The notes under the pieces were generated by a model. It saw only the letters and a list, made by a program, of their open reading frames with translations. It did no database searches and had not been told where the DNA came from. From an uncultured Rickettsiales bacterium (lineage in GTDB: Bacteria; Pseudomonadota; Alphaproteobacteria; Rickettsiales; UBA1997), in contig CAJQHK010000004.1 of assembly GCA_905478165.1 (NCBI GenBank), forward strand, positions 27,557-91,556: a DNA stretch of 64,000 nt. The letters are read 5' to 3'. Below, piece by piece: positions 52,013-64,000 of the stretch. The position numbers and the translations under genes were made by a program. Within the stretch, counting starts at the first letter, position 1. Each line of letters opens with the position of its first letter.

Positions 52013-52339
52013 CTATCTAGAATCTGCTGTCACCCTACCATTATAAGAACTTGGTGGTTTATAGTACCTATCAGTGTCATAATATTGATAATAATTAGGC
52101 TGAGGAAATTCGTAAGGGTTTGAATAATATCTTGATCCAGGAGTGACAACTGAAGTAGTAGCAGGAGTAGGATAAGATGATTGCGGTTGGTAAGGCTGAG
52201 AATAAGGTGTGGCAGATGGATATCTTGGGTTCATATATGAACCAGGGTTCTCAGAAACAATGCAAGCATTTAGTAGGAATATACTCAACAAAACACAGAT
52301 TCTTACAACAAATGTATATATATTAATCACATTAAACAA
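52013..52339 (-). CDS. Hypothetical Pro/Tyr/Ser-rich small lipoprotein (TTG start)
   Basis: A lipobox-like LLNAC follows a hydrophobic leader. The remainder is low-complexity (YPSATPYSQPYQPQSSYPTPATT, PQPNYYQYYDTDRYYKPP). Confidence 0.4.
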   Translation of the reverse strand: MFNVINIYTFVVRICVLLSIFLLNACIVSENPGSYMNPRYPSATPYSQPYQPQSSYPTPATTSVVTPGSRYYSNPYEFPQPNYYQYYDTDRYYKPPSSYNGRVTADSR

Positions 52340-52815: not shown

Positions 52816-53637
52816 ATGAAAAAAATTAAACTAGGTAATTTAGAAATTGGTAACGAACTACCCTTCACCTTAATTGCAGGACCTTGCCAAACTGAAAGCC
52901 GAGATCATTCGATGATGATGGCTGAAAAAATTAAAGAAATTACTGATAAATTAAATATTAATTTTATCTACAAATCTTCTTTTGACAAAGCAAATCGCAG
53001 CTCAATGTCTGGCAAGAGAGGGCTAGGACTTGAAAATACTCTGCCAATTTTTGAAGAAGTTAAGAAAACTTTTAATTGCCCAATTTTAACTGACGTTCAC
53101 AATGAAGAGCAATGTGACTTAGTTAAAGACTCAGTTGATATTTTGCAAATTCCGGCATTTTTATGTCGTCAAACCGACCTCTTAATTGCAGCGGCAAAAA
53201 CTAATAAAGTCATTAATGTTAAAAAGGGGCAATTTCTGGCGCCTTGGGACATGAATAATGTAGTGAAAAAATTAGAAGATTCTGGTAGTGAAAAAATCTT
53301 ACTAACTGAAAGGGGTGCTAGTTTTGGCTATAATACTCTAGTTTCCGACATGAGATCCTTACCAATTATGGCAAAAACTGGATATCCTGTTATTTTTGAC
53401 GCTACTCACTCAGTACAACAGCCTGGTGGATTAGGAGGCGCTTCTGGAGGACAAAGAGAATTTGTTGAGCATTTAGCAAGGGCAGCTGTAGCAGTTGGAG
53501 TTGCAGGACTCTTTGTTGAAACCCACCAAGATCCAGATAACGCACCATCTGACGGACCCTGCATGCTAAAATTAGAAAATTTGGAAGAGTTTTTAACTAT
53601 AATTAAAAGATTTGATAAAATAACAAAATCAAATTAA
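52816..53637 (+). CDS. kdsA: 3-deoxy-8-phosphooctulonate (KDO-8-P) synthase
   Basis: Motifs are [55 protein letters not shown] and the [14 protein letters not shown] motif. Confidence 0.95.
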
Positions 53638-53798: not shown

Positions 53799-56700
53799 TC
53801 AAAACTTCTTTTCTATTTCTAACCTTAGGAATTCTACCTCCTTCTTGAATAGTTCTTCAATCTTCTTGTCAAAATTATTATCATCTGGTAATTTGTTGTT
53901 TCTGGCTAAATCATTAATTTCTGATAAATATTTAAATAATTTAGAACTTCTTATTGCCCTAGAAGATCCCTTTAATTTATGAATAGATTTCTGTAAATCA
54001 TTGACCTTTGATTTGTCATTTTTTATTTCTTCAATAATATTTTTACCATCACTCTCAAAAACATCAGCAATCTCTGTAGCTTCAGATTTATTAGAAAATA
54101 AAGAGGTGAAATCCCCCTCCAATACATCATTATTGCTGCTATTACTCTTATTCTTGCCACTTTGTGACAGAATATCTATACTGAATCTGTAATCTACCCA
54201 GAATTTTGATAATCTAATTAAATCTTTAGGGTTGCTACCTTTTAACATATAATCGTCAATACCGCTGTTCAACAAACTCATGACAAACTTCTTATCACCA
54301 TCTCCAGATAAAGCTATGATTGGGACTTTACAACTAGCATCATTTTTATCATTGTAGTTAGACTCAATTTTTCTAACTTCTTTTGCGGCATCAATACCAC
54401 CAACCTTACCCATATTAATATCGGTAATAATTAAATGATATTTGGTCGGGTCCAACTGAAATAATTTTACTATATCCTTGCCATCACTGCATTGAAATAC
54501 ATTAGCACCCGCATTGGAAACTTTTTTAGCGATAAGAAATAAATTTATGGCCTGATCATCAGCAACGATAACATTGAGACCTTTTAAAGTTGTATTATTG
54601 ACAACAATATCTTGGCGATGAATACTCTTGGAGGGTATGTAATAATTTAAAACCCACTTAGATATATTTCTAGCAATGAATCTTAAATCTTTTGGCTTTA
54701 TATAATAGGCGTTGCATCCCGCAGTTAGGGCCTGATTAGCAATAGCCTTATCTTCCCTAGAGCTATAAGCTAGAATTGGCAACGCATCCTTAGATATACC
54801 GAGATCATTTCTAATTTTTCTTGTCAATTCTACGCCACTCATTAAAGGCATTTCAATATCAGTTAAAATCAAGTCAAACTGATCACCACACTCTTCCTTG
54901 GATTTAATCAATTCAAAAGCTTCAATTGGATAAATTATGATAGTAATATTAAAATTAGGACATTTATTTCTTAAATCCCTAGCTAGAATTTCTATGTTAG
55001 TCCTAATATCATCGACTAAAAGAATATTTTTCTTAGGATTCTTACTTAAAGATCTCTCTAATTCATATGCACCCTCTTCAGATTTGTTAGATTTTTTTAT
55101 CTTATCTTCAAAATCTAAAATCTTATTGACACCCTCCCTCTTTTCATTATCTGATAAAATTGGAAATAATAAACTAAATTTGGTAAATTCATCAATTTTA
55201 CTTTCGCAAATTATAGCACCACCAAAATTATTCATCATTCTGTTGCAAAAATCTAAACCAACTCCAGTTCCACCCTTTTTATCTAGTGTAAAATATGATT
55301 GAAATATTTTAGTAATTACCTCCTCCTTAATTCCTGGACCAGTATCGGTCACACTAACTACGTTATATTTACCAACTTCGAGCTCTATACCTGCATCACG
55401 GACTGAATCAGAAACATTAAATTTTTTGAGCAACTTTTTATTAAAAGTTTTTTCTTTCTCAAAGGAAATGGTGATATTTGAACTTGGATATTGATCAAGA
55501 TAAAATAAGGCATTTTTAACTAAATTAAAAATTATATATTTAAATCCAGTATCATTTGCAAAAATTATAAAATCATTTTCATTATCAATATTTTTAACTG
55601 ATATAGATTCCAAATCAGATTGACCTGCTGTTACACTCCTATCATCATATAAGTTAATAATAATTTTCTCCTTTTCTTCATTATTTTTATATCCGTAAAG
55701 AGAAGCTGTATCTAAAATTAATTGCTTAGCAGAATAATAACCAAAATCCTCTCTAGTAAACTTCTTGCCACCCAGTTCATGCAAAGTTATATCGATAATA
55801 TTACTAGCTAAATCTATCGTTTTATTAATTTGACCCTTAAAATTAGCAATCTTTATACTTGATTCATCTATTATTTCTTTAAACTTACTATCCCTATACA
55901 CAATCTTTTGTAAGTTCGGATCATGACTAATATTATCCTTTATCGATACCAAATTTTCAGTTGTGAGTCTTATCGCTCCAAGAGGATTACGAAGCTCGTG
56001 AGCAATTGAGCCCGCAAGAGCTATTAAAGCAGACTCCTTCTCTCTTAGAAAGTGTAGATGTAGACGTACCCTCTCTAGTGCGATACCAACCTTGATGACC
56101 AAATCATCAAAAACCTCCATATCCTCATAATAAAAATAATTGCTTTTATTAGGACGAGATTTTAAGGTAATAAAGCCCATTTTCTTGTTGTGAAAAGTAA
56201 GAGGTATATAACCCTCAAACTCTCCATCTGTCATGATTAGTTTTAATTTTTCATAAGCCTCATTAAGTTTAATTGACAATAATATTTTGTTGCTATTGAA
56301 CTCTTTTGTTAATTTTTTTAATGTCTTAAAAGCGATATCTTCACCAAAATACCTAGAAAAACCTAGATTATCTTTGTTTGCAAAAATCCCAAGATCATCA
56401 GAAATATAAAATGATTTTATTTCTACCTGCATATCACCTCCTATGATAGATTTAATCTTACTAAGCAATATATCTATGCTTACTACATCAAGAACCTCAT
56501 TATTAATTTTTTTCATGATATTTTTCTTATCATACCTAACGCCAAAGCCAAAATTTATACCTAAAGATTTAAAACCTTTTGTTAAAATATGGTATAACTC
56601 AAGCGATATAAAAAAATATATTATAGTTAGTAATGATATTAAGATTGTGTTATCAACATTACCTAACCTCGTGTATACCTCAGACAAAACTACGTAAGAT

Positions 56701-57395
56701 AAGAATAGAATTAAAAAAGAAAACACCTTAATAAAGACCTTGCTAAAAATAAATATATCAGAAATACGATGTATTACCATTGAATATGTAATAACAATGC
56801 AATACATAGCTATCAGAATAGTTGCAAACGGATATAACTCTATTTCAAAATATGGAAAACAAGTTGTAAAGCCGCCTGCCCAACCTATGGCAAAGCCATA
56901 AAAAATCAGTTTATTTTTATAATAATTTTTAATAGATTTGTGTATTATAACGAAACTGAACAAAACAACCGATACCATATATATAAAAAATATATACCAT
57001 AATGGCGTGATATTCGGTGCAAAATTAAACTCTAAAAAAGGAGATACACCCTCAACCATAATAGGAGTAAACATAAGGATAACAAGAATTGCAACCAGTG
57101 TATTTTCTACCATCTGACAAGGTCTACTTATTTCAAATCTAGTTAAAAATCTTGCAGTCTTGAAAAATAAATATGGTATTAGAACCAAAGAAGCTAAAGT
57201 AACCTTCGAATATAATAGAGCGTGTTCTTCTGATTTTGAAATCAAATGTAATCCGTAAGAAAAACTCCAAACACACAAATTAATATTAAACATAGCAAAA
57301 CTGCTATACTTTCTATCAGAAAAAATTAAAAATATTGCTAACAAGAAGCAGGTAGCAAAAGTTACAAAAAAAGAAAATAGAACAAAATCTGTCAT
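53799..57395 (-). CDS. Polytopic hybrid sensor histidine kinase (multi-TM sensor, GAF-like, HisKA, HATPase_c, REC, REC, HPt)
   Basis: Residues 1-275 form about 8-9 hydrophobic helices with minimal loops. H-box is AGSIAHELRNPLGAI (H466), N-box NLVKNAL, G1 DTGPGI and G2 GGTGVGL. REC1 is ILLVDD...LILTDIEMPLMSG...YYIKP. REC2 is VIVADD...LIITDINMGKVGG...DYMLKG. The HPt reads QKSIHKLKGSSRAI (H1139). Confidence 0.88.
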   Translation of the reverse strand: MTDFVLFSFFVTFATCFLLAIFLIFSDRKYSSFAMFNINLCVWSFSYGLHLISKSEEHALLYSKVTLASLVLIPYLFFKTARFLTRFEISRPCQMVENTLVAILVILMFTPIMVEGVSPFLEFNFAPNITPLWYIFFIYMVSVVLFSFVIIHKSIKNYYKNKLIFYGFAIGWAGGFTTCFPYFEIELYPFATILIAMYCIVITYSMVIHRISDIFIFSKVFIKVFSFLILFLSYVVLSEVYTRLGNVDNTILISLLTIIYFFISLELYHILTKGFKSLGINFGFGVRYDKKNIMKKINNEVLDVVSIDILLSKIKSIIGGDMQVEIKSFYISDDLGIFANKDNLGFSRYFGEDIAFKTLKKLTKEFNSNKILLSIKLNEAYEKLKLIMTDGEFEGYIPLTFHNKKMGFITLKSRPNKSNYFYYEDMEVFDDLVIKVGIALERVRLHLHFLREKESALIALAGSIAHELRNPLGAIRLTTENLVSIKDNISHDPNLQKIVYRDSKFKEIIDESSIKIANFKGQINKTIDLASNIIDITLHELGGKKFTREDFGYYSAKQLILDTASLYGYKNNEEKEKIIINLYDDRSVTAGQSDLESISVKNIDNENDFIIFANDTGFKYIIFNLVKNALFYLDQYPSSNITISFEKEKTFNKKLLKKFNVSDSVRDAGIELEVGKYNVVSVTDTGPGIKEEVITKIFQSYFTLDKKGGTGVGLDFCNRMMNNFGGAIICESKIDEFTKFSLLFPILSDNEKREGVNKILDFEDKIKKSNKSEEGAYELERSLSKNPKKNILLVDDIRTNIEILARDLRNKCPNFNITIIIYPIEAFELIKSKEECGDQFDLILTDIEMPLMSGVELTRKIRNDLGISKDALPILAYSSREDKAIANQALTAGCNAYYIKPKDLRFIARNISKWVLNYYIPSKSIHRQDIVVNNTTLKGLNVIVADDQAINLFLIAKKVSNAGANVFQCSDGKDIVKLFQLDPTKYHLIITDINMGKVGGIDAAKEVRKIESNYNDKNDASCKVPIIALSGDGDKKFVMSLLNSGIDDYMLKGSNPKDLIRLSKFWVDYRFSIDILSQSGKNKSNSSNNDVLEGDFTSLFSNKSEATEIADVFESDGKNIIEEIKNDKSKVNDLQKSIHKLKGSSRAIRSSKLFKYLSEINDLARNNKLPDDNNFDKKIEELFKKEVEFLRLEIEKKF

Positions 57396-57404
57396 GACCT
57401 TTTA

Positions 57405-58118
57405 TTAGATATTGAGGTTAGATGGAAATATTATACTAAACACCATATCATCAAAAAAATATGAGTAGCACTTATATTGTGGAAAATTCCTAAAATAACA
57501 AATATAATAATGATCCTTACGAATTAATTCAGATATTTCGTATATTTTTAAATTTGTCATTAATCCAGTTTTAAGCGCTTTAGATAAAGATTCTTTTGCA
57601 GTCCATAACAAAGTAGCCATTGAATCATTATGGGAAAAATTATTAACTTCAGACTGAGATAGCTGACTCTTTATTTCTTCAAGACTGCCTAGACGAATTT
57701 TTTCTAAATCTACCGCTAATGGAGTAAAGTCAAAAAAGGCTACAGCTATCGCCATATCATTTTTATGACTTATAGAAATCTGAATCCCACTTATATTAAC
57801 GCCGCTTACAACAGGTTGTCCAAAAATACCATTTAAAATAGAAAAGCCCTTTAGGTCTTTGATTTTAACTAAATGAGATATCGCTCTCTTTGCCGCTATA
57901 CGACCAAGTAGATACGCGTCCTTCTGATACATATTTGATAAAGACACGTAGAAATTCTTTTCCTCTTTACTTAAATACCTATCTGCATTAAACAATTCCT
58001 TGTTCAAAGAGTTAGATTTACTAATTACACAATTATATTGTTTATCTAAATAATTTAATTGAAACTCAACACAACTAGCGTCAGAAGGTTCATTTAAAAA
58101 ATCTAAAATAAGCAACAT
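57405..58118 (-). CDS. 4'-phosphopantetheinyl transferase, Sfp type
   Basis: QISISHKNDMAIAVAF and LLWTAKESLSKALKTG (the W/F-x-x-KE-S/A-x-x-K motif) are present, and the 237-aa size fits. The start lies 13 nt after the PKS stop. Confidence 0.8.
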   Translation of the reverse strand: MLLILDFLNEPSDASCVEFQLNYLDKQYNCVISKSNSLNKELFNADRYLSKEEKNFYVSLSNMYQKDAYLLGRIAAKRAISHLVKIKDLKGFSILNGIFGQPVVSGVNISGIQISISHKNDMAIAVAFFDFTPLAVDLEKIRLGSLEEIKSQLSQSEVNNFSHNDSMATLLWTAKESLSKALKTGLMTNLKIYEISELIRKDHYYICYFRNFPQYKCYSYFFDDMVFSIIFPSNLNI

Positions 58119-58131
58119 AAAGGACTTTATT

Positions 58132-61100
58132 TTATAATTTAATCAATGAAATTGAATCTTCGATTTTACTAACAATAAACTCTTTATTTCTACTTAAAAA
58201 CCAATGATCTCCATGAAGCTCATGAAAACTAAAATTATTATCAGTCTGATCTTCCCATTGCTTCAACTCATCTAATAAAACAACATCATCTTCTTTTGCT
58301 CCAAAAGCTAAAATTGGAATACTTAATTTCTCTTCATCCTTATATTGATAAGTCATAATTACCTCCATATCCCTCTTCATCACTGGTATTATACTACGCA
58401 AAAAATCTTCATCATCAATATACGATACTGTTGATATAATCTTATCGATAGTATTCTCTTTTCTAGCTGTCTCCTTTATTGATTCCCTGCCTCTCCATTT
58501 TTTTGTTAATTGTGGAGCTATAGACCCTGTGACAATAAGCTTTTTGATATTTTGATATTCAGTAATATTATTTCGTCTCATATATTTTATTACTTCATAA
58601 AGAGTAACTCCTCCCCAGCTATGACCCCAAAATATTGATGGGCCATCGATTTCTGGAATTATCTGTTTAGATAAATCTTCGACTAATTTATCCACATTGC
58701 TATAGTAATACCCTTCGTCCAAACGATTCTCTCTACCCGGCATTTGTAAGGCGATGATTTCAGTATTCTTTGGAGGATTGAAGATAAAATGACTAAAAAT
58801 TGATGCACCAGCACCCACAGGATGTAGGCAAAAAATTTTTATTTTTACATTGTCATCCTCTTTTCTTCTTCTGACAAACCATTTGTCGCTACTTACCACA
58901 ATATCATCATCTCCATCTATTCCCGACTTATCTAATCCTACATTATCGCTATCTTTCTTAAGCATGGATATTATCTCTGTAGCCAGTTCTGTTAGACTGG
59001 GACCTTTTGCCAGCCTCATTAAAAACAAATTTATTTCAATATTTAATTGAATCCAGCTTCTAAATTGATTAAGCATCAAAGAGTCTAATCCAATGGTCGT
59101 AATAGAATTATTCAAAGAAATATCTTCACCAGAAACTCCCAAAATATCTGCAACACTATTTGCCAACAATTCCGATACCTTTTCAACCTTCCAATCAATA
59201 TCGTCAGATGCTATTATTTTCTGTAAAATACCATCCAAATTATTACTCTTACTAAATGAGTCCTTCTTTATAACAGCGCTAAACATAAATCTATCCTTTA
59301 CAGATTTATAAGTTTTAACAAAATTACTCCACTTCATTGACGATATCATTAAATAGTCAAAATTAGAATTTAAAAGTTCTTCTAATTTTAGATCAATATC
59401 ACTCCTGTTTATTACGACCGTACCTAACGCTCTATATATAGAATCAACATTTTTCTTACTATCTTTTGTCATTCCCGCATAATCACCACCGATAAGGCCA
59501 AAACACGCAGAATGACAAGCTAAACCATTGCTATTCCTGTAAATTGACAAGTAATTTAAAAAGCTGTTTGCTGATGAATAGTTGCTTTGTCCGCCTATTC
59601 CAATAAATGAGGAGACTGAGGATATTAGTAAAAATAGATCTAACTCAGTATCTAAAGTTGCTCTGTGTAAATTCCAAGCTCCTAATGCTTTTGGATCATA
59701 GACTTTGAAGAATCTTTCTTTAGTCATATTTGGATATGAAGAATCGTCTAATATACCGGCAGAATGAATTACTCCCCTCAATGGCGGCATATTATTTTTA
59801 ATGTAAGAAATTACCCTGTTGATATCTTCCTCTTTCGAGACATCTCCCTTTACATCTTGCCAATTAATATTAGCACCTAAATTTTGTAATTTTAATATTA
59901 TTTTATTATCTCTTTCATATTTTGGTCCTGACCTACTAACTAAAGCAAAATTTCTTGCACCCCTTTCAAACATCCACTCAGCAAGAGTTAGGCCAAGACC
60001 GCTGGCGCCACCACTTATTAAATAGGTTGCATCATTTTTAAATGACAATTCTTGGTTTGTGTCCATTTTTTGCTCAATTGCTACTAATTTTCTGGCAAAC
60101 CTACCATAATCTCTAATTGCAATTTCTGTTTCATAAGGGACCTTCTCTTCCTTGTTTATTTCTTTAATTAAATGACTGACATTATCTTCTAATTTTTGAC
60201 AGCCAAGATCAATCATCCTAACTTGATGATCAGGATGTTCATTCATAAATACCCGACCCATACCATAAAGCGAACCTTGTAAAAAATTTATATTCTTATC
60301 CTTTTCCTTATCAACTTGATCAGCATTTTTAGTAATCTGATAAATATATATTTCTTGATTTTCTATTTTTAATATCTCTTGAGATAGATAGAGGTTTGAT
60401 AGAAATAAATTCTGCGACTCTATCTGAAAAGCTTTACTATCACTGGTATCATCAATTATTGAGTCCACTGACCAAAGATTAATAATTTTAGAAAGTTTTA
60501 TATTTTTATTTTTTAAACTCAAAAATAGCTCAATAAAATTATCTTTGGAGGTTGGGTTGATTCTGTAGTGATTGCTGAATTCATTCTGGAAAGAAGTTCC
60601 TTTATCTATAGTGATAATATTATATCCAGCTTCTGATAACTCCTTTGATAATGGAGTTGACAAACCTTCATCAGAAAGAATGGCGATATTGATTTTATTG
60701 TTTTTAGTAACATCTGCGCTTGCGATCTTAGTTTTAACATGTGACTCAAACCATTGATATTTATAAAGACCTCTATCTGCATTATCTTCTTGGATATCCA
60801 GGCAGCTCTTGTTTATATTTTTTGTTATAGATACTATCTGACTATCGGAATCATAAGTCACGACATCAGAAACTATATTTTTACTATCAATTGAGTGTAA
60901 TTTTACATAACTCCATAATGTAGATTGTTGATCCTTATATTTAGTAAATTTACCAAAACTTTGTGGTAAATAAATATTGTCACCACCAGCAAAAAGAGAT
61001 GCATGTAAACAAGAATCAGATAAATTTGGAATTATATTATATTGATCAGCAATATACTCATCTTCTTGTGACAGTTCAACTCTGGCCAATATCTCGCCAT

Positions 61101-64000
61101 CATCATTTTGCCACATCTCTTTAATTAATCTAAAATGATATCCGTAATTAAGACCCTTACTTTTTAATTTAGAGTAAAATTCATCGACAGAAATCTTTTT
61201 ATCAATCCTATTTTTTAGATCTTTTAATTTATCATAATTGTTAGCATCATTAGCGGTGCTATCACATGATATTTTGCCACTACTATTTGATTGCCAGTTT
61301 TGACTATCGCCTTTTTTACTAAATATCTGATAAAGACCGGACTCAAGATTAATTTCTATTTTTGCTTCAACTTGCTCCTCCTTATCTGACAAAAACAATG
61401 CCTTTTTAAATTCAAGATTTTCTATATGAGAAAATTTATCACCGTAAAACTTTTTACCAACAGCAATCGCAATTTCTGCATGAGCGGTTGCGGGCAAAAC
61501 CATAACTCCGCCAATTTTATGGTCAGCAAGGAATATTTCTTTCTTCGGACTTAAATCTAAATCAATAATTTTTAGATTTTTATCCAAACTACTTTCAATA
61601 ACCGTTTTAATAAATGGGTGAATTCTCTTTTTTAATCTTGATTCTTTATGATCTTCACTCTCATACCAGTATTCCTTGTGATCCCAGCTATAGGTTGGTA
61701 ATTTAATTGAAGTTGGGTTTTGGTTTTTATCTACAAGTAAATTTAAAAATTGTGTTCTATTTGTTGCTACGTGAACTTTGGCAGCTGCTGACAAAATGTC
61801 ATTAATTTCATAATCTATATTAGCTTCAAAGCTTTTGATGTTTCTGGAAAGTGAGGAAATTATATAGCCATCTTTTTTTGCTAAAGATAACATATCATTA
61901 ACGCCAGCACCTAAGATTGGGTGTGGAGCGATTTCAATAAAATAATTAAATCCATCTGCAATCATTTTTTCTATTGCTGAGATAAAATAAACTGTATCTC
62001 TAACATTTTTATACCAATATTCATTAGTTAAATGTAAACCACTCTCTTGAAGTCCTGTAACAGTTGAATATAAAGAGATTGCTGATTTTTGAGGCTTAAG
62101 ATCCTTAAGACTTTCAATCATATCATCTCTTGTCATATCCATATAATGACTATGGAATGGTACATTTATCTTTAGGAATCTACTAAATATATCTTTTTCT
62201 TCCAATTCTTTAGCAATGATTTCTAAAGGCTCTGCATCTCCTGATAAAACTGTTGCTTCTGGCCCATTGACAGCTGCAATCGAAACTTTTCTTTGATATT
62301 TTTGTATAATTTGTATAGATTTAGAAAGTGGTAATCCTATGGCTAGCATCTTACCTTTTCCAGAAGCTTTATCCTGCTCTTTTGATCTATTGTAAATTAC
62401 ATCTACTGCCTGCTCTAAAGTAAGAGATCCTGCGCCATAAGCTGCAGCTACCTCACCTATTGAATGACCAACAATTCCATCTGGATTAATTCCCAGATAT
62501 TTCCAAATCTCAATGAGACCTATTTGTACGGCCATTATTGCTGGCTGAGCTATTCTTGTCTCAGAAACTCTAGAATCTTCTTTGTTTTTTTTCATCTCTG
62601 TTAGTAGAGAATAGCCAGAAATTTTATTAAAAATCTTATCAATCTTAGTGATAATTTCGGAAAATATTTTTGATTTTTCCAACAATTGCCTGCCCATAGC
62701 ATACCATTGAGGACCTTGCCCAGAACAGATAAATGCTATTTTTAACTTTTCATTTTTTTTAGTTTTTCCTGTTATGATTTGCTGATTTCGTGTATCAGAA
62801 ATATATAGGGACAATTTCTTGATTAAATCTTCTTTTGAGTTACAGATTATTATAAGTTTTTCTTCAAAGTTTGATCTGTTATTAATAACGGAATAACAAA
62901 TATCTATCAAATTATTTTTACCATCTCTGGTAAAATTAAGATATTTTTCTGCTAATTTTTTTAAAGAATTTTTAGATTTCGCTGATAATGAAAAAATGTA
63001 AGGGAAATTATCATTACTATCTTCTGATTTAGATTTTTGTTCTGACTTAGAATTACTAACATACTCCTCCAAAACAATATGAGAGTTGGTACCTCCAGCA
63101 CCGAATGAATTAACACCAGCAATTGCCTTTCTATCTTTTTTACCAGGCCATTTGGTTAATTTGGTTGGAACTTTTAATTTCCATTCATCAAATTTAATCT
63201 TAGGATTTGGAGTGTTAAAATGTAAGTTTTGTGGAATTTGCTTATTCTTAATGCAAAGAGCTAATTTAGTAAGACCTGCAATGCCAGCGACAGCTTCGGT
63301 ATGACCAATATTACTCTTAATTGAACCAATAATTAAAGGATTTTGAGGATCTCTATCCTTAGCAAACACATTACCAAAAGCTGCACATTCCTTAGGGTCA
63401 CCAACCACGGTTCCAGTTCCATGAGCTTCAATAAAATCAACATCCTTAGGATTAATAGAGGCGCCAGAGTAAACCTCTTCAAGCATCTGTTGTTGAGCAA
63501 ATTCATTTGGTACAGTCATACCATCTTCAGTATAACCATCAAAATTTACTACAGCATTTTTAATTACTGCATAAATATTATCACCATCCTTTTCAGCTTG
63601 ATCTAGCGGCTTCAAAATTACAACTCCAGCACCTTCACCCCTAACATAACCATTACCAGCAGCATCAAAGCTTTTACAATAACCATCAGGACTTAAGAAT
63701 CCACCCTTTGATAATCCAACAAAATGCTCATGACTAGACATAATGTTAACACCTCCAGCAATTGCCATATCAGCATCTCCAATCCAAATATTATTACAGG
63801 CAATCTGCACAGCAACAAGGGAGGAGGAGCAGGCGGTATCAACAGATAAAACTGGGCCCTTTAAATTAAATTGATAAGCAATTCTAGCAGGAACTGTCAC
63901 ATCGGAACTTCCCATTAAGCTATGAGCATTAATATGATCTATATCATCTCCAGCATATTTTTTTCCTTCATCGCCTAAAAATATACCAGTTATTACCGCT
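58132..64000 (-). CDS. Type I polyketide synthase, KS-AT-DH-KR-ACP-TE; N-terminus lies beyond the window edge
   Basis: The frame stays open upstream of the listed Met to nt 64000 (AVITGIFLGDEGKKYAGDDIDHINAHSLMGSS...). KS (about 63061-64000): DTACSSSL (Cys codon 63829-63831), EAHGTGT, KSNIGHTE. AT (about 61846-62739): FICSGQGPQW, GHSIGE (Ser codon 62461-62463), VPFHS. DH (about 60796-61623): HKIGGVMVLP (H-x3-G-x4-P). KR (about 59476-60693): GGASGLG, HSAGILDD, SNYSSAN. ACP (about 58966-59193): GLDSL. TE (58135-58848): GHSWGG (Ser codon 58618-58620), HGDHWF. Confidence 0.9.
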   Translation of the reverse strand, partial: AVITGIFLGDEGKKYAGDDIDHINAHSLMGSSDVTVPARIAYQFNLKGPVLSVDTACSSSLVAVQIACNNIWIGDADMAIAGGVNIMSSHEHFVGLSKGGFLSPDGYCKSFDAAGNGYVRGEGAGVVILKPLDQAEKDGDNIYAVIKNAVVNFDGYTEDGMTVPNEFAQQQMLEEVYSGASINPKDVDFIEAHGTGTVVGDPKECAAFGNVFAKDRDPQNPLIIGSIKSNIGHTEAVAGIAGLTKLALCIKNKQIPQNLHFNTPNPKIKFDEWKLKVPTKLTKWPGKKDRKAIAGVNSFGAGGTNSHIVLEEYVSNSKSEQKSKSEDSNDNFPYIFSLSAKSKNSLKKLAEKYLNFTRDGKNNLIDICYSVINNRSNFEEKLIIICNSKEDLIKKLSLYISDTRNQQIITGKTKKNEKLKIAFICSGQGPQWYAMGRQLLEKSKIFSEIITKIDKIFNKISGYSLLTEMKKNKEDSRVSETRIAQPAIMAVQIGLIEIWKYLGINPDGIVGHSIGEVAAAYGAGSLTLEQAVDVIYNRSKEQDKASGKGKMLAIGLPLSKSIQIIQKYQRKVSIAAVNGPEATVLSGDAEPLEIIAKELEEKDIFSRFLKINVPFHSHYMDMTRDDMIESLKDLKPQKSAISLYSTVTGLQESGLHLTNEYWYKNVRDTVYFISAIEKMIADGFNYFIEIAPHPILGAGVNDMLSLAKKDGYIISSLSRNIKSFEANIDYEINDILSAAAKVHVATNRTQFLNLLVDKNQNPTSIKLPTYSWDHKEYWYESEDHKESRLKKRIHPFIKTVIESSLDKNLKIIDLDLSPKKEIFLADHKIGGVMVLPATAHAEIAIAVGKKFYGDKFSHIENLEFKKALFLSDKEEQVEAKIEINLESGLYQIFSKKGDSQNWQSNSSGKISCDSTANDANNYDKLKDLKNRIDKKISVDEFYSKLKSKGLNYGYHFRLIKEMWQNDDGEILARVELSQEDEYIADQYNIIPNLSDSCLHASLFAGGDNIYLPQSFGKFTKYKDQQSTLWSYVKLHSIDSKNIVSDVVTYDSDSQIVSITKNINKSCLDIQEDNADRGLYKYQWFESHVKTKIASADVTKNNKINIAILSDEGLSTPLSKELSEAGYNIITIDKGTSFQNEFSNHYRINPTSKDNFIELFLSLKNKNIKLSKIINLWSVDSIIDDTSDSKAFQIESQNLFLSNLYLSQEILKIENQEIYIYQITKNADQVDKEKDKNINFLQGSLYGMGRVFMNEHPDHQVRMIDLGCQKLEDNVSHLIKEINKEEKVPYETEIAIRDYGRFARKLVAIEQKMDTNQELSFKNDATYLISGGASGLGLTLAEWMFERGARNFALVSRSGPKYERDNKIILKLQNLGANINWQDVKGDVSKEEDINRVISYIKNNMPPLRGVIHSAGILDDSSYPNMTKERFFKVYDPKALGAWNLHRATLDTELDLFLLISSVSSFIGIGGQSNYSSANSFLNYLSIYRNSNGLACHSACFGLIGGDYAGMTKDSKKNVDSIYRALGTVVINRSDIDLKLEELLNSNFDYLMISSMKWSNFVKTYKSVKDRFMFSAVIKKDSFSKSNNLDGILQKIIASDDIDWKVEKVSELLANSVADILGVSGEDISLNNSITTIGLDSLMLNQFRSWIQLNIEINLFLMRLAKGPSLTELATEIISMLKKDSDNVGLDKSGIDGDDDIVVSSDKWFVRRRKEDDNVKIKIFCLHPVGAGASIFSHFIFNPPKNTEIIALQMPGRENRLDEGYYYSNVDKLVEDLSKQIIPEIDGPSIFWGHSWGGVTLYEVIKYMRRNNITEYQNIKKLIVTGSIAPQLTKKWRGRESIKETARKENTIDKIISTVSYIDDEDFLRSIIPVMKRDMEVIMTYQYKDEEKLSIPILAFGAKEDDVVLLDELKQWEDQTDNNFSFHELHGDHWFLSRNKEFIVSKIEDSISLIKL

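Follow-up and report, generated by a model that had tools for sequence, protein, structure and literature searches.

Pairs of an autoinducer synthase and a sensor kinase are known in bacteria for N-acyl homoserine lactones (AHLs), alpha-hydroxyketones, the diffusible signal factor (DSF), 3-hydroxy fatty-acid esters and peptides, and Rickettsiales are regarded as poor in secondary metabolism as well as in signalling. LuxN is a hybrid kinase whose membrane sensor has nine helices and an N-out orientation, RpfC of Xanthomonas is a hybrid kinase to which a receiver (REC) domain and a histidine phosphotransfer (HPt) domain are fused, DSF is a 2-enoic acid, and comQXPA of Bacillus is a polymorphic pherotype locus. 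The CqsA/CqsS system of Vibrio and the LqsA/LqsS system of Legionella use alpha-hydroxyketones (PMC3376566, PMC3285556), while PhcB/PhcS of Ralstonia uses a fatty-acid-derived signal, with a membrane kinase encoded beside the synthase, the methyltransferase PhcB (PMC8578825). The agr locus of staphylococci is hypervariable across agrB, agrD and the part of agrC that encodes the sensor (PMC10482373). Here we analysed a 64,000-nt stretch of DNA from an uncultured Rickettsiales bacterium (contig CAJQHK010000004.1; "the window", whose positions serve as coordinates throughout), in which a type I polyketide synthase (PKS), an Sfp-type phosphopantetheinyl transferase (PPTase) and a hybrid sensor histidine kinase (HK) are encoded in a row on the minus strand. 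On balance, we favour the interpretation that this trio is one co-inherited signalling module in which the product of the PKS is read by the kinase, a reading drawn from comparative sequence evidence. To our knowledge, no autoinducer synthase/kinase pair with a type I PKS and its own PPTase has been described, and literature searches returned none. The initial annotation of this stretch had likewise known of no described PKS-kinase case, and our search of the literature on Rickettsiales for such a module agreed with it.

The three genes are tightly packed, with gene limits and gaps read from the list of open reading frames (ORFs). The PKS gene (58132..64000) terminates with a stop codon at 58132, and at the window edge its reading frame is still open. 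A gap of 13 nt (58119..58131) separates this stop from the start of the PPTase gene (57405..58118; 237 aa; Pfam ACPS), and another 9 nt (57396..57404), with AAAGG directly before the ATG of the HK in the sequence, lead to the HK gene (53799..57395; 1198 aa; also supported by Pfam and homologue alignment). Gene order, strand, gaps and coordinates given in the initial annotation were thus confirmed by ORFs and Pfam. The gap sizes, and only these, point to co-transcription of the trio; a promoter and terminator scan of the locus returned the same counts as shuffled sequence and was uninformative in this AT-rich DNA. The metagenome contig L001, 99.8% identical to the window, provided the extension past position 64,000 that had been called for: it yielded the N-terminus of the PKS, which is 2087 aa in full length (1955 aa inside the window, the first 132 codons beyond its edge), and fumC upstream of the PKS on the same strand. 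The same arrangement was present on three further contigs from other samples with 99.8-99.9% identity. The PKS is a single module of ketosynthase (KS), acyltransferase (AT), dehydratase (DH), psiKR, ketoreductase (KR), acyl carrier protein (ACP) and thioesterase (TE) domains, as assigned by Pfam and motifs, while the HK consists of nine predicted transmembrane (TM) helices, a GAF-like domain, the DHp and catalytic ATP-binding (CA) domains, two REC domains and an HPt domain.

Tracing homologues to their contigs, as the initial annotation had proposed, revealed that the PKS-PPTase-HK order is clearly conserved, and none of the refuting outcomes named there that could be checked was observed. The trio was found in at least six lineages (the window with L001; L005; L016 with L018; L014; L017 with L015; and the contig of P0009), and L007 carries the rearranged order PKS-HK-PPTase. 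Identity to the window HK was 55% for L005, 53% for L017/L015, 50% for L014, 36% for L007 and 35% for P0009. The flanking genes differ in each lineage (fumC/kdsA; aspartokinase/rotamase; an unknown gene/Pyr_redox_2; ABC-F/thioredoxin), and the junctions stay short, with 0-11 nt for PPTase-HK and PKS-HK and from a short overlap up to 80 nt (L005) for PKS-PPTase. A 2.2-kb contig (L019; Ga0075480_10061180) holds a remnant in which a PKS KS fragment abuts HK fragments (824-2174), with a recO-like gene upstream and no ORF of at least 40 aa on the module strand; here PKS and HK have undergone joint deletion and decay. Because the trio recurs with different flanks, with a change of order and with joint decay, the chance adjacency that the initial annotation had listed among its alternatives can be dismissed, and there is strong support for a functional link between synthase and kinase. 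In a scan of GTDB, the sensor was encoded in only two species representatives, both metagenome-assembled genomes (MAGs) of Rickettsiales, and a scan of JGI metagenomes produced zero new alleles. The L015 locus (JAYQKE010000014.1, 3007-9998), where the PKS is split into four ORFs in a pilon-polished MAG, was considered as a pseudogene and rejected: the frameshifts are taken as assembly errors because an Illumina contig with 99.7% identity, L017, contains an unbroken PKS ORF. On the P0009 contig (JGI 3300059473), a convergent gene for a 733-aa stand-alone Acyl_transf_1 protein directly follows the trio and may encode an extra, lineage-specific acyltransferase.

Relatives of the kinase also stand beside other kinds of synthase. 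Full-length HK homologues share the same architecture with 31-32% identity over about 1200 aa. On contig L021 (JGI 3300033182, Ga0369852_1088887), the homologue adjoins a 2395-aa PfaA-like PKS that ends in a hot-dog thioesterase and is preceded by a FadL/Toluene_X outer-membrane channel. On L020, the stop codon of a gene for a short-chain dehydrogenase/reductase (SDR) of ketoreductase-like type lies 3 nt before the HK start, and a divergent gene with an AfsA domain (the hot-dog domain of A-factor/butyrolactone synthases) adjoins the SDR gene. A shorter HK relative, P0008, overlaps an NAD_binding_4 acyl-reductase-like gene. A constant receptor scaffold combined with an exchangeable synthase is what would be expected of signal-synthase/receptor modules.

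Two further contigs, as well as L021 itself, showed additional features. Downstream of the PKS and kinase on L021 (13442-20461), three truncated ORFs of 236, 512 and 509 aa, each comprising a sensor plus an H-box, end about 40-45 residues past the phospho-His and are followed by a second complete kinase of 1049 aa. The sensors on this contig are mutually 27-55% identical, and the ORFs end near the point where identity between the L005 and L016 alleles (see below) resumes; the arrangement looks like a tandem library of sensor cassettes sharing conserved H-box DNA. A stand-alone Hpt gene (112-113 aa) was seen in the neighbourhoods on L008 (12800-14489) and L022 (21440-21781), two related symbiont-like contigs with common hisS-ccmC-ferredoxin-HAD synteny, and on L008 a FadL/Toluene_X channel gene adjoins the shorter kinase homologue. 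The Hpt gene and the channel could be further parts of a relay or of signal uptake.

Within a single (sister) species, the module varies as an allelic mosaic. Three contig families share one genomic background, namely L005 (with L006), L016 (with L012 and L018) and L013. Compared in 150-nt windows, L005 and L016 have a nucleotide identity of 98-100% across the upstream genes and the KS-AT part of the PKS. This value drops to 45-79% from the AT/DH boundary through the ACP, recovers to 89-100% in a TE stretch of about 600 nt, and drops once more to 45-67% in a segment made up of the PKS tail, the entire PPTase and HK residues 1-432. From just before the H-box onward it is 93-100% over more than 10 kb, with 98-100% given for the kinase-to-HPt part. 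The proteins are 45% identical in the DH, 33% in the ACP region, 31-33% in the PPTase and 44% in the sensor, and 98-100% identical in the KS, AT, DHp-CA, both REC and HPt. Transferred approximately to the window, hypervariable block 1 (PKS DH through ACP) covers 58846..61659, based on protein alignment, and block 2 (the last approximately 30 PKS codons, the PPTase and HK residues 1-432) covers 56100..58220, based on the L016/L005 comparison, both on the minus strand. Synonymous divergence (dS) is 0.005 in the kinase, 0.020 in KS-AT and 0.139 in the TE among the conserved parts, and reaches 1.24 in DH-ACP and 1.28 in the sensor among the variable ones. The variable blocks are therefore old alleles in a near-clonal background, not fast-evolving sequence, and positive selection alone as the cause of accelerated sensor evolution was rejected since dS is saturated as well and the alleles are old. 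No other import was detected in roughly 20 kb of flanking sequence, and three alleles occupy the one locus.

The third contig family, L013, matches L005 at 100% over the 3' end of the PKS and the greater part of the PPTase. Its sensor is a third type, with 42% identity both to that of L005 and to that of L016, after which the sequence rejoins at 94-100%. Three sensor types that are 42-44% identical are thus found on one 99%-identical kinase core. The main alleles were recovered from independent samples, with L006 matching L005 at 100%, and L012 and L018 matching L016 at 99.5% and 99.8%, respectively. The first base of each of L006, L012 and L013, contigs of different samples, lies no more than 30 nt from the 3' edge of the conserved TE block (L005:9076-9106). 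Assembly graphs would branch at this point if several alleles coexist within a sample, which the common start suggests.

Comparison across species showed that sensor types do not follow species relationships. Sensor identity is bimodal: it amounts to 35-47% between types at any species distance, one species included, and within types to 67% (window/L013), 83% (L016/L014) and 100% (L017/P0005). L016 and L014, the latter from another species, have the same DH-ACP, PPTase and sensor types with 68-87% identity; their kinase cores are 54% identical, and dS is 0.49 for the sensor, 0.49 for the PPTase and 1.04 for the kinase core. The c/C cassette was co-inherited in L016, L018 and L014. Despite the conserved TE between them, the ACP-region and PPTase types co-vary (a/a, c/c', w/w), which fits co-adaptation of carrier and transferase and lends indirect support to the ACP of the neighbouring PKS as the target of the PPTase. 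Within a sensor type, the ratio of nonsynonymous to synonymous divergence (dN/dS) is 0.18-0.19, as under purifying selection; with complete motifs and low dN/dS, the alleles look functional.

The kinase carries a fused H1-D1-H2 phosphorelay, as determined by Pfam and an alignment of 12 homologues on which the invariance of residues is based. The DHp/HisKA domain (55836..56048) contains the H-box SLAGSIAHELRNPL with the phospho-His H466 (codon 55998-56000), which is invariant too, and is followed by the catalytic domain (HATPase_c; 55161..55547), a first receiver domain (54666..55028) with DD795/796, D846 and K900 invariant, a second receiver domain (54213..54572) with DD946/947, D992 and K1052 invariant, and a C-terminal HPt domain (53802..54098) with H1139 invariant in HKLKG. 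The HPt domain was assigned by alignment, Pfam Hpt being recorded on the homologues P0005-P0012. In the AlphaFold model of the sensor (pLDDT 78), the membrane part (residues 1-281; 56553..57395; Pfam HisKA_7TM) is made of nine long helices connected by short loops, plus a single small beta-hairpin. It leads into a cytoplasmic GAF-like alpha/beta domain (residues 290-432; 56100..56528), identified by AlphaFold and fold search, and then into the DHp helix. The GAF-like domain ends in an invariant YFYYEDME..GIALERVRLH stretch. In a PDB fold search it matched GAF domains from PDE5A and from a dual-sensor HK, and Pfam GAF_2 matched weakly on a paralogue; the fold search otherwise gave only a generic seven-helix-bundle likeness with TM-scores of 0.2-0.3, which was not interpreted. 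An N-out/C-in orientation fits the positive-inside rule for the loops read from the sequence. Since neither sequence nor model contains a sizeable extracytoplasmic domain, a ligand would have to bind inside the membrane, as happens in LuxN, CqsS and AgrC, and the predicted design of the sensor favours a hydrophobic one.

Similarity searches were made with the HK and with its sensor. The top NCBIfam match of the HK is LuxN (NF041945) with 179.8 bits, which covers the kinase and REC parts only, ahead of the next family with 122 bits and far short of the LuxN equivalog cut-off of 1550 bits. The homologues P0008 and P0009 are named CqsS by their sources, and no true CqsS or LqsS of Vibrio or Legionella was among the 120 HK-homologue matches listed. 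We take the LuxN score and the CqsS labels as hints on the kinase core only. A profile of the sensor recovered 5059 relatives, 210 of them below 1e-30. A word-indexed protein search with this profile returned two irrelevant proteins and zero extra alleles, and a ligand for HisKA_7TM sensors was not found in the literature.

The PKS has the KS, AT, DH, KR, ACP and TE motifs of a type I synthase on one polypeptide, with all Pfam domain matches above their cut-offs. The KS (63217..63996; ketoacyl-synt and Ketoacyl-synt_C) is cut at the window edge and shows the Cys of DTACSSS and the His residues of HGTGT and NIGHTE. The AT (61801..62733; Acyl_transf_1, 242 bits) has GHSIGE and VPFHSH, motifs that look malonyl-type. 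The DH (60820..61620; PKS_DH_N, PS-DH) has HKIGGVMVLP and DSCLH, and the KR (59494..60030; KR 179 bits, Beta-ketacyl_N), with the structural psiKR (60328..60675) upstream, has GGASGLG, an LDD motif and YSSAN. The ACP (58978..59169; PP-binding) carries GLDSL and the C-terminal type I TE (58153..58839; Thioesterase, 71 bits) carries GHSWGG and GDHWF. Neither an enoylreductase (ER) nor a loading domain is present in the PKS, whose KS starts at about residue 18 in L001. The catalytic motifs are complete in the window PKS and in all alleles, with L007 alone having D in place of the G of the DH motif. The PPTase matches ACPS with 38.6 bits against a cut-off of 25 and, weakly, 4PPT_N; its WTAKESLSK motif and length are those of the Sfp type, and its top NCBIfam match, AusB, lies far under the AusB cut-off. 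Searches for relatives that would inform on the product gave little: sequence searches of the PDB returned generic modular PKS, fatty acid synthase and receiver domains only, and a word-indexed protein search with the DH-to-TE part found one family member plus generic PKSs and no extra allele.

Beyond the observed domain content, intact motifs, synteny, allelic mosaic and within-type purifying selection, we infer that the PKS product is the ligand of the kinase. The initial annotation had proposed a polyketide signal perceived by the co-encoded kinase; the coupling part of this proposal is supported by synteny, by the synthases beside kinase relatives and by the alleles, and the ligand part keeps its inferential character. 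In the proposed mechanism, the PPTase would convert the ACP of the PKS to its holo form, and a PKS with a B-type KR, an active DH, no ER and a hydrolytic TE would release a small lipophilic carboxylic acid. One extension of a fatty-acyl starter would give a 2-enoic acid, and iterative use, as in the KS-AT-DH-KR-ACP modules of polycyclic tetramate macrolactam (PTM) synthases, a conjugated polyenoic acid. This enoic or polyenoic class is predicted from the domain logic of KS-AT-DH-KR(B-type)-ACP-TE lacking an ER, and it agrees with the polyene-type, PfaA-like PKS that neighbours the homologue on L021. The acid would partition into the membrane and be bound inside the nine-helix bundle of the HK, the GAF-like domain would relay the change to the kinase core, and the phosphoryl group would pass from H466 to D846 (with or without D992), to H1139 and on to an unlinked response regulator. 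Ancient discrete types of DH-to-ACP, PPTase and sensor would be reshuffled by recombination at conserved joints, which lie at the AT/DH boundary, in the TE and where the GAF-like domain ends directly ahead of the H-box. Different types would then confer different signal specificity and act as specificity groups (pherotypes). More tentatively, marine Rickettsiales-like bacteria might use polyketide cell-to-cell (or confinement-sensing) signalling in balancing-selected "dialects" exchanged as cassettes, possibly the first pherotype system with a megasynthase signal, of which the truncated L021 ORFs would perhaps be a stored library.

Several observations weigh against a module in which the kinase reads the PKS product and its types define specificities. 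The saturated dS of the variable blocks speaks for old alleles and recombination and not directly for diversifying selection. In L013 the sensor changed without the PPTase, and possibly without the PKS; because this contig pairs PPTase type a with sensor type A, strict co-variation of synthase and sensor is not shown. Linkage between blocks 1 and 2 is seen on three long contigs that represent two haplotypes only (L005; L016 and L018), and the motifs of the diverged DH, KR and ACP alleles differ in no qualitative way from which other products could be predicted. A response regulator for the output is not in the window. The HisKA_7TM match on the membrane region, at 27.0 bits, is just below the Pfam cut-off of 28.6, and with 5059 matches the class of nine-helix plus GAF-like sensors is widespread. 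We know of no member of this class with a known ligand.

The kdsA gene (52816..53637, plus strand; Pfam DAHP_synth_1) is convergent with the module, and the absence of tailoring, transporter and resistance genes, which the initial annotation had noted for the downstream side, also holds upstream on L001. The GC content is 0.29-0.34 in the module region compared to 0.265-0.339 across the window, in line with the earlier judgement that this is no fresh horizontal insert. A mobile element was rejected on the grounds that the composition matches the window and that the module flanks in the window, L001, L005, L016 and L014 are free of integrase and transposase genes. No other HK, REC or HPt ORFs were found elsewhere within the window, and no regulatory RNA was found near the module by Rfam and ARAGORN. 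The sole Rfam/ARAGORN matches in the window were tRNA-Tyr(GTA), tRNA-Ser(TGA) and tRNA-Leu(GAG), at 2275-2636 and 20702-20789. In the otherwise ORF-poor 1.4-kb gap from addA to kdsA, a 108-aa ORF (52013-52339, minus strand) with a signal peptide, a lipobox-like LLNAC and a Pro/Tyr/Gln-rich tail probably encodes a small lipoprotein.

An alternative explanation, which we consider unlikely, is that the cue of the kinase is unrelated to the polyketide, for instance a lipid from the host or the environment or the state of the membrane, and that the kinase only gates a host-directed, defensive or competitive polyketide, with sensor variation tracking hosts or niches. The replaced sensor of L013, next to an unchanged PPTase and possibly an unchanged PKS, would fit such a scheme, as would PKS alleles whose motifs predict no other products, but the hypervariability of the PKS DH-ACP region and PPTase in the same strains would be left unexplained. 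Nine-helix plus GAF-like sensors are indeed common in kinases with no adjacent synthase; however, the occurrence of this kinase family beside three unrelated kinds of synthase would again lack an explanation. Moreover, the kinase has no DNA-binding output, neither the module nor the 64-kb window contains a regulator, and the tight coupling would be superfluous for a dedicated on-switch.

It is quite improbable, in our view, that the PKS makes an envelope or membrane lipid for which the polytopic kinase serves as an intramembrane feedback sensor in homeostasis. Although kdsA, a gene of the lipopolysaccharide pathway, neighbours the module in the window, this neighbourhood is conserved in no other lineage. 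The fatty-acid-synthase-like logic of the PKS and the PfaA-like PKS of L021 would suit a lipid product, but the hydrolytic C-terminal TE frees an acid with no transfer to a lipid scaffold, and the module has no accompanying acyltransferase or lipid-assembly gene. A sensor that is almost wholly membrane-embedded would be compatible with lipid sensing, yet alleles of 31-67% identity in one species are unexpected for a housekeeping lipid sensor, and the AfsA and SDR genes beside a homologue point to a diffusible, butyrolactone-type compound. Both the unrelated-cue and the lipid-sensor readings account for close linkage, but they account poorly for the three unrelated synthase types found with one kinase family and for synthase parts that vary strongly along with the sensor. 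Fortuitous adjacency, with variable blocks that are neutral imports from other species or assembly chimeras, is close to refuted: all data come from metagenome assemblies, and L013 and L005 block 1 each rest on a single contig, but the trio occurs in six or more lineages whose flanks differ and one of which has another gene order, independent samples gave each of the two main haplotypes, about 20 kb of flanks hold no other import while three alleles occupy one locus, and the breakpoints fall at domain boundaries with frames and motifs intact and a dN/dS of about 0.2.

If a PKS-made signal read by the adjacent kinase is the correct interpretation, the module would represent a new signal class in a group where signalling is unexpected. 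With three genes, no accessory enzymes and several natural alleles, the signal-receptor hypothesis can be tested directly with natural variants. Recombination is tolerated at the AT/DH boundary, beside the TE and where the GAF-like domain meets the H-box, and these natural swap points could guide the engineering of PKSs and kinases.

Compared with the known systems, the module resembles CqsA/CqsS and LqsA/LqsS in that a synthase gene adjoins a polytopic kinase lacking a large periplasmic domain; CqsS and LqsS bind a hydrophobic, fatty-acid-derived ligand in the membrane, and CqsS has a phosphorelay through a receiver domain. The likeness to these pairs drawn in the initial annotation therefore stands as an analogy and does not extend to the parts. 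CqsA and LqsA are pyridoxal phosphate (PLP)-dependent acyl-CoA transferases, in contrast to a type I PKS with a PPTase, and no aminotransferase-family gene is present in the locus (window and L001). CqsS and LqsS have six TM helices joined directly to the kinase, in contrast to nine helices and an intervening GAF-like domain of about 140 aa, and the present kinase also carries two REC domains and an HPt domain on its own polypeptide; there is no demonstrated homology between the sensor domains, the link being weak kinase-core similarity. The predicted nine-helix, N-out topology is like that of LuxN of Vibrio, which differs by having no GAF-like domain, a separate HPt protein (LuxU) and an AHL signal. 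In RpfF/RpfC, too, a membrane kinase is encoded beside the synthase, whose fatty-acid-derived signal is a 2-enoic acid, the class predicted here for a single round of KS-KR-DH-TE chemistry; unlike the crotonase RpfF, and unlike PhcB, the synthase is a PKS with a dedicated PPTase, and the sensor domain is unrelated to those of RpfC, which has five TM helices, and of PhcS. The PKS itself has the KS-AT-DH-KR-ACP set of PTM synthases (FtdB/HSAF type), which build conjugated polyenoyl chains iteratively, and P0271, an out-of-family match to its DH-to-TE region (27% identity), carries the name FtdB in its source. PTM synthases, however, are fused to a nonribosomal peptide synthetase module and not to a TE, and make antibiotics, not signals.

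Because synthase class, sensor fold and the fused relay of two REC domains and an HPt domain differ, and the LuxN threshold is missed, the module belongs to none of CqsA/CqsS, LqsA/LqsS, LuxM/LuxN, RpfF/RpfC, PhcB/PhcS, agr or comQXP. A ribosomal peptide signal as in agr and comQXP does not apply since the 9-13 nt gaps hold no peptide gene, and, unlike in those loci, the producer is a megasynthase and the variable region is split by a conserved TE. Like agr and comQXP, the module is hypervariable in its putative signal-production genes and in the sensor half of the HK, while the kinase half and the flanks are conserved, and its allelic types are discrete, old and common to several species. Within-species dialects are well documented for such peptide systems, and a megasynthase version would show that such partitioning is open to non-peptide chemistry as well.

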